From Isurus oxyrinchus (lineage: Eukaryota): a stretch of 64,000 nt of DNA. The notes below the pieces were generated by a model, which worked only from the letters and a program-made list of their open reading frames with translations, was not told the DNA's origin and searched no databases. Made by a program: the position numbers and the translations under genes. Positions within the stretch are counted from its first letter, which is position 1; each line of letters opens with the position of its first letter. Of the stretch, positions 30,501 to 53,300 are shown in pieces. The stretch lies in contig JANJGN010000005.1 of NCBI GenBank assembly GCA_026770705.1, forward strand, positions 21,328,001 through 21,392,000, read 5' to 3'.

Positions 30501-33500
30501 GTGACAATGTGTTCTGAACTCATATATATTTGGAAGACCTTTAGGTTAGAAATAATTGACTGATGTCACACCACAGCTGAGTTGTACAGTTTGGTCTGAG
30601 TTCAGTGAATGAAAGTTTTAAGACTGGGGAAAATAAATCAGAAGCTTTACAAAAACCAGAAGACCAAAAAAATGTGTGGAACCCATAAGAGAGTAGATTG
30701 TATGTAGTGTTCAGGAGCCAGCAACTTTCTGGTTTCATGTTTATACTGTATTTGCATATAAATACAGCCCATAATTGTTAAGAAATAACTATGGTCTGCC
30801 AATACCTTTAGCAAACCAACCTACAGTGTATTCTGTTCCTAAAAGTATAATTTTCTTCCACAGAATGACAAAACCATCGAGCTAAGCACTACAATTATTC
30901 GATCAAGTCCCACTCCAACGCCAGATCAAACTCTAGTTAATCCAAGTGAATTGACAATTTCAAGCTCGTTGGAGGAACATACAGATGATTCTTGCAATCC
31001 TCGCTCACAGCCAAGACAATCGGGTTGTGATAAACAGCAAAGCCATGAATGCAAAAGTTCTGTGGATAAAGCTGAAGATGGATGTCATTTACAAATAGCT
31101 GACATATCTTCTCCACAGTCTGAGGAAGCAAAGATACTACAATCAAGTAATCAGCAATTGGGTGCTTTTCCTCCTGCAGCATCAGGCAAGCCAATGGTGT
31201 ATGAAGAATCATCTACAATACAAAAAGCTGATCATGTTCATGCATCTTGGCATGACAAGATGAACAGAATACATTGTAGAGACAACATTCAAGGATCCTA
31301 CACAACTAATAGTGGGTTAGGTGTTCTCCCACCATTAAATACTAATTGCAGATATATGCCCATTTCAAGCTTTAAACCTCAAGGAGCTTCTTCAGATGGG
31401 CCCACGGCAGGCCCGACATTACTTACTGGACATTCATTATTAACAACTCCACTGGCCCAGCAGTATCTGGGAACTCTGACCTCCACTTCCAATTGTTTAA
31501 ATGTGCCTTTGACCTCATGCCACTTGGGCAACACTTTGTCTTCTAATATACATAATCTTGCAACTGGTTTGCCTGGTGCTAATTTGCTCATTGGAAATAT
31601 TCAAGCATTTGGGACTCACCTTGATCCTAAACTGGGGGCAAGGATGTTAGACCCAGCTCAATTCTACAGTGCACACACCATACCTTTGGACTCGCAGTCT
31701 ATTAGCTACCAACCTTCTAGAATTGGCATGATTGATCAGTGGTCAGGTGGACATCAATTGAGAGATGTTGGTACGTATTTTTCTGGTATCTTTCTGGAGC
31801 TGAAGTTGCTGTTGGAACTAGATGTGCTGATATTTTTTTCAAAAAGCAAAACAGAAAAAGCACCATGCTTCATTACCCCTTTGATACACTATAGAAGTAT
31901 AGCCTCATTCATACTTTGACTTGCCATAGGACTTTTACTCTGGGGAATTATGTGTCAACAGGAAAATGTCATATCACTTCATTGCACCTAAAACAATGCA
32001 CCACATATGGTTTTGCACCATACAAGATCCACAATATTACGTAAGTTCATTTTTCTGCAACTAAACTTCTTGGCTCATCCCTGACTTGCTGCCAGATTGA
32101 AGTTAGTATCCCCAGCTCTACAGGTGTAGATTGTACGAGACAGATTGTCAAGTATGTTTATATCCAAGTGTGAATAATGCAGATTTTGTTTTCATTTTGA
32201 AGTTTTCCAGAAGCCCAAGGTGGTGGTGTTACTGGGTAGATTAAAATATTAGATGAATCTTTTCTAATCCAGCTTTTTAGAAGTAACACACACAACTATA
32301 ATCTGCTCTCTAGATAGCCATATAAAAAGCAAATGAAACAGAAAAAATAAATGAACAACATTCAATAGCTAAAGTTGACAATATAATATTGCATTTGGTA
32401 GAGTTTCCCAAGCTGGGCTTCAGTCATGTGGCATGATTTATGAAATACATTACCTGGATTGCAAAAGTATATTTAGTTCAGCATGTCTGCACCAACATAC
32501 GATGGAGGTTTTCTGTTTATGAGATGTTAGTTTGCACCTTAGTTATCTCTGTTCAGCGAAACTGGAGCGTCTTCTTCAGGGCATAAGTCTGGGCAAAATT
32601 TATAGAGACCCTGGGCTGTCCAAACGTCAAGGTCCCTCCTTTTGACCCCCCTGTTGGGTCCGAAATGATGCAGAGCACTACATTTGACCCCAGCTTGGAT
32701 GCAAGAATTGCCTGAAAGATGACTGAGTCAGGTCTATACCTGCTTTTGGGCTGTACTCTAAACTTTTTGTCAGGGTTTACTACCTTAGTCTTTACCTCTC
32801 CAGTGGGGCTATTTTCCCCTAGCTGGGAGTTTGGTTCATGAGCACCAGGGCATGTCCACACACCACTGGGCCTACAGGCTGCATGCCTGGGGACCATATT
32901 TCCTTTGGGTTTCTCAGAAGCTTTAGTTTGGAGCCACAAGGTACCCAGTTTCCATGTGTTACCATGAGGAGGCACAGCTGAGGACTTGCCTGTGGAGAGA
33001 CTGTGTATTGACAGGGAAAGACTTGTGCAATAAAAACAAAAATTGCTAGAAAAACTCAGCAGGGTCTGACAGCATCTGTGGAGAGAAAGGCAGAGTTAAC
33101 GTTTCGAGTCTGTATGACTCTTCCGTTCTGAAGAAGATACGGATTCGAAACGTTAACTCTGTCTTTCCACAGATGCCGTCAGACCTGAGCTTTATCAGCA
33201 ATTTTTGTTTTGTTTTTTTCAGATTTCCCGCATCCACAGTATTTTGCTTTTGTCTAAGGATTTATGCACTTGGCTCCATTTTTCACATTGCGACTAACCA
33301 GGTGTATAGGCTGAAAGTAAAAAGCACACAAGAGCTCTAAGCACTTTACAAAATGCAGTGATATTCTCACCTTCATTGTTTCTATATAGTGTGATTTTAT
33401 AAATTTGACTGATTCACAAAATGTATTAGGAAGGAATGACGGCACAAACACAGTAAGCCTAAAAACCAAGACAAACTTGACCCTGTTAGGGAGAGAGAGA

Positions 33501-42500: not shown

Positions 42501-44292
42501 GACGGAGTGTAATGTGGAGAAGTGTGAGGTTATTCATTTTAGTCATAAGAATAGAAAAGCAGAATTTTTTTCGAAATGCATGAAAATTTTAAATGGTAGA
42601 GACTTGGGTGTTCTCATAGAAACACAAAGTTAACATGCAGGTACAGCAACAATTAAGAAGGCAAATGGTATTATGGTCTGAATTGCAAGGAGATTGGAGT
42701 ATAAGAATAAATAAGGCTTGCTACAATTGTACAGGGCTTTGGTGAGACCACATCTAGAATGCTGTGAGCCATTTGGTCTCCATACTTAAGGAAGGATATA
42801 CTTGCATGCAGACAATACAGTGAAGGTTCACTAGATTAGCCCCTGGGTTGAGAGGATTCCCCTATGATAGGCTGAGTAAATTGGGCCTATACTCCTTGGA
42901 GTTCAGGGGAATGAGATGATCTCATTGAGATATTCAAGATTCTGATGGGGCTTTACAGGGTGTACACTGAGTGGTGGTTTCCTCTGGTTGGGGAATCAAG
43001 AACTGGGGACACAGTCTCAGGATAAGGAAGCATTCATTTAGGACTGAGATGAAGAGAAATTTCTTCATGCCAAGGGTTGTGAATCTTTGGAATTTCTGTA
43101 CCTCAGAGGTTTGTGTCTCAGAGAATCCAGGGTATGGAGAGCAGGGGGGAAATTGGAATTTAAGCTGACGATCAACCATGAGCCTGCTGGGCATGTTGTG
43201 TGGTGTAGTCCTGCATCTATTTCTTAAACTCTTCTTTCTGTCTGTTTCCAGGTTTTGGCCGGGAAAAGCAAAAGCTTGGATTTTGGTGACATGGTGCCTG
43301 GTGGTGATAAAGTGCTCTCTCTCAAATTGATTAATAGGACTCGCGCCACTGTTCCCATTCGGCTTGTCATCAGTGCAGTAAGTTTTTTATTTCTCTAAAA
43401 AGTGACTAATTGAACAAATTAATGTATTCTTGGTCAGTTATAATGCAATCTTTGCCCTTTGTATTAAGACTTAGCCTCCTTGTCCTGATGCCAGACAGTT
43501 GACTTGACAATACCATAAATACACACACGCTTTTGTTTAAATTGTTTTTATTCATTCACAGAATGTGGGTGCAGCTGGCAAGGCCAGTATTTATTGCCCA
43601 TTTCTAATTGTTCATAAGGTGGCAGTGAGTCACTGCAGTCTATGGTGTATGTTCACCCACAGTGCTGACAAGGAGGCTCAGTATTTTGATTCAGTGATGA
43701 GAAATGAACAGTGATGTATTTCCAAGTCAGGATGGTATGTGACTTGAAGAGAAACTTGGAGATAATGGTAACAAAAACAAAAAATGCTGGAAAAACTCAG
43801 CAGGCCTGAGAGCACCTGTGGAGAGAAAGACAGAGTTAAAGTTTCGAGTCCATATGACTCTTCAGAGCCTTTATCTTGGAGATAATGGTGTTCCCAAGTG
43901 CCTGATGCCCTTGTCCTTCAAGATGGTAAAGGTTGCGGGGTTTGGAGGTAATGTTGAAGAAACCATGGCGAGTTTTACAGTGCATCTTGTAGATTGTACA
44001 CACTGCTGTCACGTTGTACTAATGGTGGAAGGATTGAATGTTCCAAGTGGATGAGATGCCAATCAAGCACACTATTTTGTCCTGGATGATGTCAAGCTTC
44101 TTGAGTGTTGTTAGAGCTGTGCTTATCAGACAAATGGCAAGTATTCCTTCAGACTCTTGTTGGCACCTGAGGAGTTGTCAAACATCCCCACTTCTAACCT
44201 TATGTTGGAGGGAAGGTCATAATAAGCTAACCCTTGCACCCATGTCCTCAGGCTGCAATGATTGGAGCCTCCAATAGCCAGCTAGTGGAGAC

Positions 44293-44356
<64 letters not shown>

Positions 44357-47300
44357 CGCCCCCCAATTGTCCATTGGGATTGATTTTACCATAGCTGTTT
44401 GTTGCGACACTTGGTCAAATACTACGTTGATGTCAAGGGCAGTCACTTTTGCCTTATCTCTGGAATTCAGCTCTTTTGTTTATGTTTGGACCAAGTCTGT
44501 ACTGAGATCTGGAGCTGACTGATTCTGGCTCTGTCAGCTCTTTGCTCAGAGTACAATTCAGCTTCAACTAGTGAAAATTAAATTTAAAGAAAGAAATTAA
44601 AAAATGAAATGAGATGATGATTGGCTTTGAACACTGCATCCTGAATTCATAGAATCTGGAGCTGAGCCTGTGGATTCCCCTCATTTATAACTTCAATAGC
44701 TATGGCACCTGACATCGCATTGCAATGTTATTGAGGGATAAAAACAGAGATATGTTATTGAGGGGTTGTTCTGTTGCATAACAAGTATCAACATGGAAAG
44801 TACTGTATCAGCAAAGGTATTTTGACATGGACCAATCAATTTCTTCAGTGTTCCATACTTATTAAACTATGACCTGAAACGCATTTCAAGATAACTTGTT
44901 ACTTAAAATCTTGAAAAACATTTGAGTCTTCTGCCGTGAGCAGTATGCTAACCCAGTGCACCATCCACTGCTCTCTAGATATACAGACAACATTTCCTCA
45001 ACGGGAACTTAATTTGCTTTAGCCATCTTGTGTTGGTTTCCAATAATTCTAAATACATTTTTGTGTTATACAGAACGCTGCTGCATGGAGATGTTTTACA
45101 TTCTCCAAATCTGACACGTTAACAGAAACTGCACCGCAGGCTGAGAGAATCTCACCATTGGTGGCCCCATCAGTCATGAATCATGTGATGCGAGCCAGCT
45201 ATGATGGAGAGGTAATGAGAAATTCTGAGCCTCAGCTCAATGTGTTCTTCAATGTTCAGTTTTGATCTCCTTTCAAAAGAATAAAAGTTTTTTTCTGCTT
45301 GGATATTTATTTCTGTCATAGGATGATTTGTACATTTTGGAAGGCTGAATAATGTCAGTGTGAGAAATCAAGTGGATTTCAAACTTTCTAAATTGTTCAG
45401 TGGCTTGGAAAAATCAATTTTTGGGAAGATTTAATGCTGTTGTTGAAATTTTGCTTTTCAGTGTCCTATAGGCAAGCTTAGCAGAGTGTTTTATTCTACA
45501 TGATCTATTTTAAACTAGAAAAAAACTTATTGTGTGGCACTGAAGATCGGATCTCCTTTTGCGTGAATTTCTTTGGTCATTGATTAAGAGTATTCACAAG
45601 CATTACAGAGTGACCTCCAAAAACGACAGTGGCCATGAGTTTGGATTGGCCTGAGTGCTAATGTAGAACTCAAGGACTTTGAACTTATGATAACTGTTGT
45701 GTACTCTGCATTCTCATCATGGTTTCCCAGTATCATCTAGCTGCCGATCAGCTCTTTGGTTGAAGACATGTTTTTAGAGCCATTTTAAGATGCTATGAGT
45801 TGACCACCTCACTGAGTACTGTTGTATCTATTCGTATGAGAAAACCTATAAATTATGAACCACCAAGCAAGGCTGTGATACTGTGGGTAAATGCGAAGTT
45901 TAGGCTAGTCACTTCCAAGTCAAGGATGTTATGATGTGGCAGGCAATGTGTGCCAGGTGGACCAAATCCACGATGGAAACTTGGCCATGCTATCACAACT
46001 GTTTTGCAATTTGTATTTATTATGAGTATTTATTATGCACTGAATTCAGAAGTAATAAGTCCACTAAGGCCTTTAGAGATTTTAAAAATTAAATTAAAAC
46101 TTTTATTAACAAAATATTTCAAGCACATACACAAGATTACAGTTACTTAATGCTATAACTAATCCTAAAATTCTTAATTAATCTAACTCCCAACTACATT
46201 CTCCCTTTAAGGCAACAGTCCAAAATAGATTTTTAAATTTAAAAGCAAGCCAACAAGTTATTACAGGATGCACTTGACAGTGGAATTCCAAAGGCTTTTC
46301 TCTAATTTTAGTTACTGGACACAGCAGACTTTTCAAGTATGGCTGGAGGCTTCCCTAAGACTGTTCCATACACACCGGTTAGATCTTACATGGCTCCTGT
46401 CATTCCTCTTTATGTATGTTTCTCTCTCTTTTATCTGTAAATTCCATTGTTCCAACTGTCTTTGCAAATTTGCTTTTCCCATAATAAAAATCTTTCATGT
46501 TGCCAACTTGAATGCTTTCCTTTTGGGACAAATAAAAGCACTGCTTGGCCTTGTTTATCTTGTTAGTTGTAAACATCCTACCATCCCTTTGAAACCCAAA
46601 CAACTCCTTCTTATCTAAAAATACAAATTTCTTTTACACCTTTGTTAAGACCTCATCTGTTTACTCTTTAGCATGTCTACACCTAACTCCTTTTGATAAT
46701 TTCAAGCTTGCAATCTAGCTGACTCCAACTCAGTTAAATCACACACAGACAGAATCATCCATACTCACCTCTATAAACCTACTTTAGAATAACCCACAAT
46801 AATATTATGAAAATTATTATAGTTTAGTAACAAGGAGAGAAAATTGGAGAGCCCATTTTCACAACCATTGAATGGCATTAGTGACATTTCACTCAAAACT
46901 GCAAGGATTATAGTTTGGGGGAAGTACAAAAAAATTTTTTGAAGTCCTTCATTAATGATTTGTGCATTGCTAAAATACATTCAATTTAATTTCATGTTAT
47001 TTAAATAGTGTGGTGATAGCTGTGGTTACTTTACCAATTCCGCTGGATCTAATTGTATGTTACAGAATACCTGCACCAATGATCACAAGAACAGTATTAC
47101 CTGGAAAAACTCAGCAGGTCTGGCAGCATCGGCGGAGAAGAAAAGAGTTGACGTTTCGAGTCCTCATGACCCTTCGACAGAACTTGATTTCGAGTCCAAG
47201 AAAGAGTTGAAATATAAGCTGGTTTAAGGTGTGTGTGTGGGGGGCGGAGAGATAGAGAGAGAGAGAGGTGGTTGTGTAGACAAACAAGCAGTGATAGAAG

Positions 47301-50300
47301 CAGATCATCAAAAGATGTCAGCGACAATGGTACAAAAGAACACATAGGTGTTAAAGTTGGTGATATTATCTAAACGAATGTGCTAATTAAGAATGGATGG
47401 TAGGGCACTCAAGGTACAGCTCTAGTGGGGGTGGGGGGAGCATAAAAGATTTTAAAATATTTAAAAATAATGGAAATAGGTGGGAAAAGAAAAATCTATA
47501 TAATTTATAGGGGGAAAAAAAAGGAAAAAGGGGGAAACAGAAAGGGGGTGGGGGAGGGAGCTCACGACCTAAAGTTGTTGAATTCAATATTCAGACCGGA
47601 AGGCTGTAAGGTGCCTAGTCGGAAGATGAGGTGTTGTTCCTCCAGTTTGCGTTGGGCTTCACTGGAACAATGCAGCAAGCCAAGGACAGACATGTGGGCA
47701 AGAGAGCAGGGTGGAGTGTTAAAATGGCAAGCGACAGGGAGGTTTGGGTCATTCTTGCGGACAGACCGCAGGTGTTCTGCAAAGCGGTCGCCCGGTTTAC
47801 GTTTGGTCTCTCCAATGTAGAGGAGACCACATTGGGAGCAACGAATGCAGTAGACTAAGTTGGGGGAAATGCAAGTGAAATGCTGCTTCACTTGAAAGGA
47901 GTGTTTGGGCCCTTGGACGGTGAGGAGAGAGGAAGTGAAGGGGCAGGTGTTACATCTTTTGCGTGGGCATGGGGTGGTGCCATAGGAGGGGGTTGAGGAG
48001 TAGGGGGTGATGGAGGAGTGGACCAGGGTGTCCCGGAGGGAGCGATCCCTACGGAATGCCGATAAGGGGGGTGAAGGGAAGATGTGTTTAGTGGTGGCAT
48101 CATGCTGGAGTTGGCGGAAATGGCGGAGGATGATCCTTTGAATGCGGAGGCTGGTGGGGTGATAAGTGAGGACAAGTTTCCATTATTTTTAAATATTTTA
48201 AAATCTTTTATGCTCCCCCCACCCCCACTAGAGCTGTACCTTGAGTGCCCTACCATCCATTCTTAATTAGCACATTCGTTTAGATAATATCACCAACTTT
48301 AACTTTAACACCTATGTGTTCTTTTGTACCATTGTCGCTGACATCTTTTGATGATCTGCTTCTATCACTGCTTGTTTGTCTACACAACCACCTCTCTCTC
48401 TCTCTATCTCTCCGCCCCCCACACACACACCTTAAACCAGCTTATATTTCAACTCTTTCTTGGACTCGAAATCAAGTTCTGTCGAAGGGTCATGAGGACT
48501 CGAAACGTCAACTCTTTTCTTCTCCACCGATGCTGCCAGACCTGCTGAGTTTTTCCAGGTAATTCTGTTTTTGTTTTGGATTTCCAGCATCCGCAGTTTT
48601 TTTTTTGTTTTTATCACAAGAACAGTTACCGCTTCTATACTTCAGTTAGAATATGTTTTAATCTCTTATAGATATCAAATGGAATGTTCTGTCTATCCAT
48701 GCATGATACCCACAGCTGACAAGAGGCACAAGAATGATAAAACTGCTCCTCCGTATATCTTTTTAAAAACTGTGGTTATAAAGCAGATGCTGATTAGAAA
48801 CCACTAAAACTGCAGTCTTTGGTCAACCAAAACACTCGTGTCTATTCTCTTCACTGGGAATACCAATTTTTCTTTTGAAAAGTTTAGAATGTTTTTTCAA
48901 ACTTTGGCAAACCTGAAAAATGTATGCTCTTCACTTTTTTTTTGATGGATCTTCTGCAGCATTTTAAGATTTTTAAATGTGTTTCTTTTTTTTTACAGGA
49001 TCCTGAAAGTTTTGTTTTGTGGGTTCATTTTCATGCACCACAGAAATATATCAGTAGTTCAGGTATTTATTTCATTTTGCAGTTTGAAATGTTTTGAAAG
49101 GCTTTCTCCACCAACTAATCACAATCTGTATTGATGACGTGGATGAAGGGACCCGTGCAAATTTGCTACTAATATAAAGATGGGTAGGGGAGCAACTCGT
49201 GTGCAAAAGGATAGGTTAAGTGAGTGGGCAAGATTTAGCAGATGGAGTATAAATGGAAAATGTGGGGTTATCAGCTTTGGTAGGAAGAATAGAAAAGCAG
49301 AATATTATTTAAATGGAGAACGACTGCAGAATACTATGGTTCAAAGGGACCTGGGTGTCCTTTACATGAAGCATAAAAAGTTTGCATGAGGATACAGCAA
49401 GTACTTAGAAGGCAAATGGAATGCTGGCCTTTATTGCCTGGGGTTTGGATTATAACATGGAGAAGTCTTGCTAGAACTGTAGGGCATTGGTGAGAACACA
49501 CCTAGAGTATTACGTACAGTTCGGTCTCCCAACTTAAGGATGGATATACTTGCATTGGAGGCAGTGAGAGAAGGCTCAGTAGGTTGGTTCATGGAATGAA
49601 AGAGTTGTCTTATGTGGGAAGGTTGAGCAGGTTGGACCTATACTCATGGGAGTTTAGAAGAATGCGAGGTGATCTTATTGAAAGGTTTAGCATACTGAGG
49701 GGGGCTTGATAGGGTAGTTTTTTTTTATTCACTCATGGGATGTGGACTTCGCTGGCTGGGCAACCATTTAGTGCCCATCCCTAGTTGCCCTTGAGAAGGT
49801 GGCGGTGAGCCGCCGCCTTGAACCGCTGCAGTCCGTGTGGTGTAGGTACACCCACAGCACTGTTGGGAAGGGAGTTCCAGGATTTTGACACGGTGACAGT
49901 GAAGGAACAGCGATATATTTCTAAGTCAGGATGATGAGTGACTTGCAGGGGAACTTCCAGATGGTGGTGTTCCCATCTATCTGCAGCCCTTGTCCTTCTA
50001 GATGGTAGTGGTCGTGGGTTTGGAAGGTGCTGTCTAGGGAGCCTTGTTGAATTCCTGCAGTGCATCTTGTAGATGGTACACACTGCTACTGTGCGTCAGT
50101 GGTGGAGGGAGTGAATGTTAGTGGATGTGATGCCAATCAAGCGGGCTGCCTTGTCCTGGGCGGTGTCAAGCTTCTTGAGTGTTGTGGGAGCTGCACTCAT
50201 CCAGGCAAGTGGAGAGTATTCCATCACACTCCCGACTTGTGCCATGTAGATGGTGAACAGGCTTTGAGGATAAGTTACTCGTCACACAATTTCTAGCCTC

Positions 50301-53300
50301 TGACCTGCTCTTATAGCCACAGTGTTTATATGGCTAGTCCAGTTCAGTTTCTGTGGTAACCCCTAGGATATCGTGGGGGATTCAGTGATGGTAATGCAAT
50401 TGAACGTCATGGGGCGATGGTTAGATTCTCTCTTGTTGGAGGTGGTCATTGCCCGGCACTTGTGTGGCGCGAATGTTACTTGCCACTTGTCGGCCCAGGC
50501 CTGGACATTGTCCAGGTCTTGCTGCATTTGGACATGGACTGCTTCAGTCTTCTAAGGAGTCGTGAATGGTGCTGGACATTGTGCAATCACCAGCGAGCTT
50601 CTGACTTTATGATGGAAGGAAGGTCATTGATGAATCAGCTGAAGATGGTTGGGCCAAGGGCACTGCCCTGAGGAACCCCTGCAGTGCCGTCCTGGTGCTG
50701 AGATGACTGACCTCCAACAACCACAACCATCTTTCTTTGTGCTAGGTATGACTCCAACCAATGGGAGAGTTTTCCCCCTGATTCCCATTGACTCCAATTT
50801 TGCTAGGGCTCCTTGATGCCACACTCGGTCAAATGTCGCCATGATGTCGAGGACAGTCACATTTGCCTCACTGAGAGGATGTTTCCCCTTGGGAATCTAG
50901 AACTGGGGCACAATTTTTTGAATAAGGACGTTTAAGACAGTGATGAGGAGGCATTTTTTCTGAAAGTTGTGAACCTTTGTGCTTTCTGAGTCTTTGAATA
51001 TTTTCAAGACTGAGATAAACAGATTCTTGAAATATAAGGTCATCAAGAGTTATGCGGAACAGGCTGAAAAGTGGATTTGCAGCCATGATCTTATTGAATG
51101 CCAGAGCAGCTTCGAAGACCCATATGGCCTGCTGCTGCTCCTATTTCTTATGTTCTTATTTAAGTATGTTAATGGGTTCTTTATTTATTTTGTTTCAATT
51201 TGTGAAAAAAACTGTATATAGTTGGACAAATATGATTAGCAACATTGTGTCACAGCTTTGTGACATTAGTTTGTAAACTAGAAACCGTGCCTTTTTTTAA
51301 AAAGAGCATTAGTGATCCTGGAATAGAAACAGAAAATGAAGGAAAAACACAGCAGGTCTGGCAGCATCTGTGGAGAGAGAAACAGAGTTAATGTTTCGAG
51401 TCCAAATGACTCGTTTTCAAAAGTTATCCTGGGTTTTATCAATAGGATCAGAAAATCTTGAAAACTGAAAGGTAATTGTAAACTTGGACGAATCTTTGAT
51501 AAGGCCATAGCTGGAATACTAGGCCCTACTTTGGGGACAAAATGTCAAAGCCATGGAGTGTACAGAAGAAATTTACTAAAATGGTATGAAGGTGTAAGGT
51601 TTTAGATATGAAGAGAAACTGAGTCCCTTTCACTGCAGCAGGAAATGTTAAAAGGAGATTTAATAATGATGCTCAAAATAATGAATGATTTTATTAAGGA
51701 AAATGAGGGTAGCTATTATTCTGCTGGTTAGTGAGTTCATAACTAGGTGTTTAGGTGGTGTGGAAAGAATAAAGGAAGGAATTATTTTTGCCTTATTTGT
51801 GCCATAATGGCATCTGCTTCTAGCTACCTCTCAGTGCAGAAAGTCGTTGGGTATATGGCCGTCTTCTGCCCTGCAGATGTGCCCGAGCCAATGAAGCTGT
51901 CTTAAGTTATTTTACAAGTACTTTAAGAGTAAGAGGGTAACTACGGAAAGAGTAGGGCCCATTAAGGACCATAGTGGTAACGTGTGTGGAGCCGGAAGAC
52001 GTAGGTAGGGTTCTAAATGAATACCTTGTGTCGGTGTTCACAAGTGAGAGGGACGTCATGGGTGTGGAAATCAAGCAGGACTGATATAATTAAATAAATT
52101 AGCATAGAAAGGAAGGAGGTTCTAAGTGGACTAGCAGGCTTAAAAGTAGATAAATCTCCAGGCCCAGATGAAATGTATCTCAGGCTGTTAAGTGAGGCAA
52201 GGGAGGAGATAGGTGCGCTGGCAATAATTTTCAATACCTCTCTGGCCACAGGAGAGGTGCCAGAGGACTGGAGGACAGCCAATGTGGTATCGTTATTCAA
52301 GAAGGGAGGAAGGGATAAACCAGGGATCTACAGGCCAGTCAGTCTAACTTCAATGGTAGGGAAACTATTGGAAGCAATTCTGAGGGACAGAATTAATATG
52401 CACTTGGAGAGGCAGGGGTTAATCAAGGGCAGTCAGCATGGTTTTGTTAAGGGGAGGTCACGCCTGACCCTTAATGCGCAACAGAAGTGAAGGTGGAAGT
52501 TGCTGGACGCCCAAAGCTCCAAGTCCAGGATGCTTGCAAGCATGACGTGAAAGCCCTAGACATTGATTATCGCACCTTGGAGTCACTAACTGAAAAGGGA
52601 GGAAAATGGTGACACCTCCTGTGGGCTTGCATGCACCAGCACGATCACCAGTGGCTTAACAACAGACCTCAACGCTGAAAACAACATTCGGTAGCTTCAT
52701 GTGCGGCACTTATGGCAGAACCTGCTTGCCAAGGATTGGCCATCAGCAAAGGTGTGCCATATGAAGACCTCGACTGAAATGGATTTGTTTTCTTCATGTC
52801 CATCATCCTTCGTAGATGGAAGGATTCCAGTTAGATCTTGGGATATTCTAACCTATTGGTGGATACAAAGCCAAGTTCGCTTTTAGATGGTAAGCAACCT
52901 AATATTAAAATGGTAGTGGGGAAATTGGATTAAATGAGTTTCCGATAGCTGGCACCAATTAGATAAACCAAATGATTTTCTCTGTCTTCTGTGAAATAAT
53001 GATTCATTACAGAAACCTTGAGCTTTAAACTGTATTATAAACTTTTAATACTATGATATTTATTGCAGATCCTTTAGGTACTGCTGAGGATTACTTTGCA
53101 AGAGTTGATATAGAGGTTGACAGTCCTGGCCCCAGCAACGTTATTAACAGTGTACCACTCTGTGCCAGAGTTGGAATTGCTAGAATACATGCTCCTAAAG
53201 ACCTGCAGGTATGCTGACACAAGCACTTGAAGATATAAATGTTTTGCTTCTTGGATTTTCTGACAGCCTTGTGGGTAGAAGTAATGTCTGGCTTAGCATG

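Follow-up and report, generated by a model that had tools for sequence, protein, structure and literature searches.

The closest described system is Poseidon of Anolis carolinensis (PAc), whose protein cuts and extends both strands in vitro, with ribozyme cleavage being dispensable, and starts at two internal sites that bound the tail of the element (Frangieh et al. 2024, PMC11167929). The inverted arrangement of pseudo-LTRs seen in related elements has been explained by self-priming or by endonuclease resolution (PMC3846280, PMC8557442). Additionally, the minimal hammerhead ribozymes of Penelope elements are mostly dispersed single motifs derived from truncated elements (PMC4209133), and non-LTR retrozymes are present in a cartilaginous fish (bioRxiv 10.64898/2026.07.22.740005; PMC7229834).

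The locus analysed here is a short insert in a 64-kb stretch of shark DNA, which as a whole is called the window. The insert is almost certainly a dead stub of a Penelope element, not a member of a separate family. Element positions follow the ribozyme strand and count from the C of the CUGA core, taken as 0; the predicted cleavage then falls between +30 and +31, and two internal 3' sites lie 35 nt apart, site B at about +99 and site A at about +134. The features of the insert and its surroundings are as follows.

43540..44160, minus strand: decayed host LINE-like repeat, ~70% identical to other copies; the limits are those of the stretch searched
43755..43769, no strand: copy of the target duplication beside the site-B end; exact repeat, with an empty site in 40/40 host copies
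43770..43868, minus strand: main arm, a Penelope pseudo-LTR from -3 to internal site B (~+99), ~93% identical to the family reference
43834..43865, minus strand: damaged minimal type I hammerhead, judged against its subfamily and the definition in PMC4209133; no Rfam match
43867..43874, plus strand: 8-nt scrap in inverted orientation, assigned by sequence match to the distal 3' end of the element (site A, +126 to +133)
43875..43889, no strand: copy of the target duplication beside the site-A scrap; exact repeat

The first-pass annotation had described a 105-bp insert between perfect 15-bp direct repeats that interrupts a LINE, and this description was borne out, with the insert at 43770-43874 and the repeats at 43755-43769 and 43875-43889. 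In the host, degraded LINE-like coding remnants can be read on the minus strand, and this repeat is abundant: an unbiased sample of 160 evenly spaced 10-kb stretches (1.6 Mb) of the 4.98 Gb genome gave 146 HSPs in 69 of the stretches. Since the flanks are contiguous in all 40 of the other host copies of this sample in which both could be aligned, and since each 15-mer bears decayed letters private to this host copy, the repeat is a genuine target duplication. Read on the minus strand, the insert begins 9 nt before CTGAAGA, as had been reported; its first 8 nt, previously read as upstream element sequence, are instead the distal 3' tail of the element in reverse complement. The main arm is about 99 nt long and ends at site B, and the 8-nt scrap overlaps it by 2 nt and the target duplication possibly by 1 nt. 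An 8-nt match in one copy could be due to chance, and the case depends on the 11 copies considered below. The entire insert is explained by Penelope sequence. An Rfam scan of positions 30000-55000 gave six weak matches, none of them over the insert, and the insert folds no better than its shuffles (z -0.56 and -1.23).

The cleavage site predicted for the hammerhead lies near 43838, inside the insert. The ribozyme had been written as an intact motif, which had to be revised: position 16.2 is changed, and two extra bases stand between the named stem and GAAA because this copy lacks 3 nt of the core relative to its subfamily. The features that define a minimal type I hammerhead (core, helix II and palindromic 15.2-16.2) are present in the majority of the subfamily and broken in this copy. 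Judging from these changes, the ribozyme of this copy is probably inactive, and we regard it as a passenger in the formation of the stub.

Longer copies run upstream into RT and GIY-YIG coding remnants and share the same tail, although the Pfam support for the two domains is weak and below the cut-off. In seven of seven loci chosen for long frames, frames of 919-954 codons lie between pseudo-LTRs, and the ribozyme and sites B and A are situated in the 5' UTR, some 40 nt upstream of the first ATG; a pseudo-LTR is present on both sides in six of these seven loci, and one locus is a 3326-bp tandem. Copies with an intact 918-aa ORF are present; these belong to a younger sister subfamily that is ~85% alike in the core to the subfamily of the insert. 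The organization of the parent is that of an EN+ Penelope-like element, with a single ORF that encodes RT and then a C-terminal GIY-YIG, pseudo-LTRs that arise from partial tandems, and an optional 30-40-bp tail giving two 3' ends. The inverted truncated 5' arm inside one duplication, also typical of such elements, was found as well: 30 of 131 insertions are head-to-head, and the insert described here has its 8-nt scrap. These 131 insertions in the 1.6-Mb sample correspond to ~400,000 genome-wide, by a hand extrapolation that pools all subfamilies, and an existing repeat library (Dfam/Repbase) likely contains an entry for the family.

Some further features of long copies were observed. One locus (L241, 1505-1597) combines a strong donor-like site near +79 with an acceptor-like AG immediately upstream of the ATG, which suggests a possible 5'-UTR intron of ~90 nt; such an intron would hold both start sites, so that only unspliced RNA could serve as template. 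The donor GT of this possible intron, seen in the sister subfamily, is absent from the subfamily of the insert. Two full-length loci (L244, L246) have a truncated upstream pseudo-LTR and a flanking repeat of ~14 bp, with no inverted arm in the alignments. A 746-codon open frame is common to six copies on several unplaced contigs, which suggests a duplicated or arrayed locus.

The window contains five additional arms of the Penelope repeat, and the following inserts of the family were delimited in it.

33029..33251, no strand: short head-to-head insert of the same family as the insert; one arm ends at B and the other at A
47082..48626, no strand: long (1.5 kb) insert of the sister subfamily with head-to-head arms, B on the minus strand and A on the plus strand
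51312..51432, minus strand: second single-arm stub (insert 51322-51422), ending at site B

No flanking duplication was found around the insert at 33029..33251, and the one at 47082..48626 is bounded by a 14-bp repeat at 47082 and 48613. A second independent insert with nearly the same two endpoints had been proposed at 51322-51421. It is real, shares the 3' site, and agrees on the 5' side to within a few bases, but it spans 51322-51422; it is flanked by a 10-bp repeat with one mismatch (51312-51321 and 51423-51432), and no inverted scrap was present inside these repeats.

The ends of the family were mapped in two sets of copies. The first is the unbiased 1.6-Mb sample; the second, called the anchor set, comprises 63 loci, which account for the first 65 of the 572 places where a downstream anchor of the insert's subfamily matches exactly. 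An earlier genome search, in which 40 of 1645 candidates were scored, favoured copies similar to the whole 105-mer and was excluded from the end counts. The reference sequence ended at -330, so the search for duplications is uninformative for long single arms.

In the unbiased sample, 78 of 162 arms have their 3' end at site B, 69 at site A and 15 elsewhere. The two sites are paired: the 30 head-to-head inserts of this sample comprise 24 A+B, one A+A, no B+B and five unclassifiable cases, so that A+B accounts for 24 of the 25 classifiable ones (p ~4e-7 against independent choice). Exact flanking repeats of at least 8 bp, mostly 12-15 bp, were found around 20 of the 30, as compared with 4 of 580 shuffled cases. 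In the anchor set, 18 of the 63 loci have an inverted arm, and by eye these were scored as 13 A+B, three unclassifiable and two B+B-like. A short inverted A scrap precedes single B arms in 7 of 44 cases versus 1 of 35 (p = 0.07), which is only suggestive. The pairing is at odds with the in vitro results of Frangieh et al. (PMC11167929), who saw no strand difference of the start site.

Inverted structures of this kind have been attributed to self-priming of the cDNA by fold-back, perhaps on an antisense template, with the tail produced by endonuclease resolution (PMC3846280, PMC8557442), and palindromes at inverted junctions do occur in this genome as well. However, in 9 of the 24 A+B pairs the B arm outreaches the A arm on the 5' side by 9 nt or more, and the arms of the insert itself are also not nested, which excludes that either arm was copied from its partner by fold-back; moreover, later in vitro work places the starts of reverse transcription at both ends of the tail (PMC11167929). 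We therefore consider fold-back highly improbable. Two priming events probably made the insert.

The first-pass annotation had proposed that the insert is a discrete, non-autonomous unit, retrozyme- or SINE-like, mobilised by the Penelope RT/GIY-YIG. The involvement of these enzymes is supported, but a self-propagating unit is very unlikely. The idea has some appeal, given that many inserts of 100-140 bp have duplications of their own, that 11 copies share an identical 5' junction, and that non-autonomous Penelope derivatives and retrozymes exist (PMC8557442; bioRxiv 2026.07.22.740005). The junction of the insert, taken as an exact 18-mer, was found at only 10 other loci in 4.98 Gb; nine of these are flanked by exact repeats of 7-14 bp, which differ from locus to locus, and in two of the ten a longer inverted A piece precedes the junction. 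Longer inverted A scraps with the same type of junction were seen at L004, L112, L113, L252 and L279. By pairwise distance, the 11 junction copies are further from one another (0.118) than from 30 longer copies (0.099), a long-copy set partly picked for likeness; they have no private allele, and three of them carry a deletion that is also found in long copies. The absence of mutual closeness and of private changes indicates that the junction most likely arose repeatedly by microhomology. Furthermore, the stub has no TATA-like box, many copies have a second, inverted arm, and the ends vary, with the 3' end at A or B and the 5' end from -4 to +46 or far upstream. Few 5' ends fall near the ribozyme cleavage site (+29 to +35): only 4 of 158 arms, and 1 of the 63 anchor loci. 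No tandem arrays were found among the 162 arms in 1.6 Mb, where three same-strand neighbours occur, none of them a repeating unit.

Two specific versions of this proposal were rejected. A non-LTR retrozyme does not fit, as the insert is a single unit and not a tandem, and its cleavage site is internal and not a monomer boundary. A SINE-like family derived from a short master should have fixed ends and private mutations, and neither was seen, the comparison being limited to 11 copies. On one contig, a single stub with the same flanks recurs at four loci (L293-L296, near 1500), presumably carried inside another repeat or a duplication.

The 5' ends are neither random nor evenly spread, in agreement with the earlier view that the insert is not a product of random truncation. 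Among the 158 arms of the unbiased sample, 52 end between -9 and +5, 37 more than 100 nt upstream and 4 near the cleavage site. Because loss of homology in old subfamilies may inflate such a peak, the 63 anchor loci of the insert's own subfamily were taken. Here 24 copies are long, one ends at -14, none at -13 to -5, 11 at -4, nine at -3 to 0 and 18 at +3 to +46; that is, 20 of 63 stop at -4 to 0, with a sharp edge at -4, and microhomology blurs the positions from -4 to 0 in two-arm inserts. Genome-wide counts of exact words gave 2479 of 5233 leaving the element at -5 (47%) and 307 of 2754 at -6; the 47% is inflated, since 9 of 20 loci with C at -5 (the first 20 of 120) are a variant that continues upstream, four of the nine being one duplicated insertion, and after hand correction the share is ~37%. 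In the sister subfamily the edge is soft: 63 arms end between -18 and +11 with the mode at -4, and the genome counts of 18% at -5 and 5% at -6 are confounded by natural variants.

A TATA-like box begins 31 nt upstream of -4, with a pyrimidine-purine step at -5/-4. By the usual spacing between a TATA box and the start, -4 would be a likely transcription start, and on the sequence evidence as a whole we regard this putative assignment as evenly balanced. A clear cap-derived G at -5 was not seen, a hand count of the first 100 matches listed giving C 49, G 33 and A 18. Ribozyme helix I begins at this position as well, and the AG of a splice-acceptor-like tract lies here too. Several contigs from four of 23 RNA contig sets, compared with the sister subfamily, start at -4; since contigs break where genomic copies diverge, this is no evidence for a start, and these sets, which are assembled contigs only, contained no piled-up molecule starts and no informative splice joint. 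The D. virilis transcript starts in the pseudo-LTR, at a TATA-less promoter 46 bp above an intron (PMC2377424), which is a precedent for a start in this region, although the geometry differs.

Two other observations were made at this edge. At L220, L287 and L300, short repeats of the arm's first bases (from -4 onward) are found at the 5' junction, resembling stutter at the end of a template. At L262 and L288, a piece that resembles the start of the element's own ORF directly precedes the -4 junction.

Two alternative explanations of the edge were considered. With two-sided priming retained, the pile-up could represent a stop of the RT or a favoured joining point (helix I, or the palindrome at -4 to -1) instead of the end of the RNA. 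The position is exactly the 5' end of helix I, its four bases are self-complementary in this subfamily and are the mirror point of several inserts (L218, L256, L257), 18 of 63 ends lie inside the ribozyme region, the sister subfamily has a soft edge, and most ORF-bearing copies pass the position. Nevertheless, stops at -4 also occur in single-arm inserts and in subfamilies that lack the palindrome, none of the 63 ends falls at -13 to -5, and a stall due to structure should arise at the 3' foot of the helix, not just past a helix already copied; we consider this explanation rather unlikely. The second alternative supposes a spliced template RNA whose acceptor lies immediately ahead of the ribozyme, with the -4 edge marking where an upstream exon stops. 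It draws on a pyrimidine tract with AG at -4/-3 in nearly all long arms, on the intron of D. virilis that ends at helix I (PMC4209133), and on C being the most frequent letter at -5. It is the least credible explanation that we weighed: 11 junction loci with C at -5 have no common upstream sequence, the C often comes from the inverted arm, and the extra letters in short single-arm inserts with a duplication amount to only 0-18 nt.

Our preferred reading, which we hold to be moderately probable, is that the insert is a dead-end Penelope/Poseidon stub for which both strands were primed at two internal sites and the longer copy ran off the 5' end of the RNA. The enzyme would cut the two strands ~14-15 nt apart in a staggered manner; one 3' end would prime at site B and copy ~100 nt, whereas the other strand would prime at site A, 35 nt further on, here copying only 8 nt; and the cDNA ends would join over 2 nt of microhomology. 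The weakest steps of the scheme concern the template, which would begin at -4 under a pseudo-LTR promoter. Priming at the 5'-proximal A/B sites would then give run-off products of 100-140 nt, similar to retroviral strong-stop DNA, the short cDNA that runs off the 5' end of the RNA, and priming at the downstream pseudo-LTR would give long copies that are variably truncated.

A more extensive version of this reading is offered tentatively, as we think it rather less likely than otherwise. In it twin priming uses two fixed sites, with one strand always at A and the other at B, and the strong-stop-like run-off cDNAs either jump to the downstream pseudo-LTR, which would rebuild the promoter and the partial tandem, or are pasted into the genome as stubs of 100-140 bp. 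The jump has to be assumed, a point that tells against the preferred reading as well, because full-length products rarely stop at the -4 edge: among 11 ORF-reaching copies with a readable 5' end upstream of +60, most of them chosen for intact ORFs, nine have an upstream pseudo-LTR, one ends near the edge and one at +55. If true, the stubs, in their hundreds of thousands, would record both the transcription start and a missing step of the Penelope cycle.

The element itself is ordinary, a Penelope stub and not a new element. Its value is as evidence on how Penelope makes inverted and tandem structures, a matter that the literature, in its accessible portions, calls unresolved; because a purified Penelope system is available, both the A+B rule and the run-off step can be put to direct test. 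The layout and the two start sites are already published. No statement of the A+B rule or of a run-off origin was found in the full texts searched, which included few subscription papers; end maps that bear on the novelty of either may be contained in paper supplements. It is also a warning that dispersed short hammerhead repeats of sharks can mimic SINEs or retrozymes while being neither.

In the twin priming of L1, the second target strand primes on the RNA and gives an inverted arm, the priming point being variable and driven by homology and the arms not overlapping; here, in contrast, both priming points are fixed and the arms often overlap. The similarity to PAc (PMC11167929) extends to the C-terminal GIY-YIG, the hammerhead in the pseudo-LTR, and two internal start sites bounding a 30-40-bp tail, with a ribozyme that is dispensable in PAc. 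In PAc the start of the ORF falls within the ribozyme and the ORF contains the two sites, whereas in the shark family these sites are located in the 5' UTR, ~40 nt upstream of the ATG, and neither a strand-specific A+B pairing nor a fixed 5' edge is reported in the accessible portion of that paper. Head-to-head arms and a one-sided tail are shared with A. vaga Pen2/Pen2a (PMC3846280; scheme in PMC8557442), as are TATA and initiator-like motifs in the pseudo-LTR; the duplications of Pen2/Pen2a are 8-10 bp as compared with 12-15 bp here, and, unlike those elements (PMC3846280), the insert has no body and an inverted arm of only 8 nt. With the minimal metazoan Penelope hammerheads (Cervera and de la Pena 2014, PMC4209133) it shares the extra base before helix II, the missing loop 3 and the palindromic 15.2-16.2, but the core of this copy is broken. 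Finally, non-LTR retrozymes (bioRxiv 10.64898/2026.07.22.740005; PMC7229834) resemble it in being non-coding, in their type I hammerhead and in their kinship to the Penelope pseudo-LTR; they are tandem units that each contain a ribozyme, whereas the insert is a lone stub with two arms, the ends of which bear no relation to the cleavage site.
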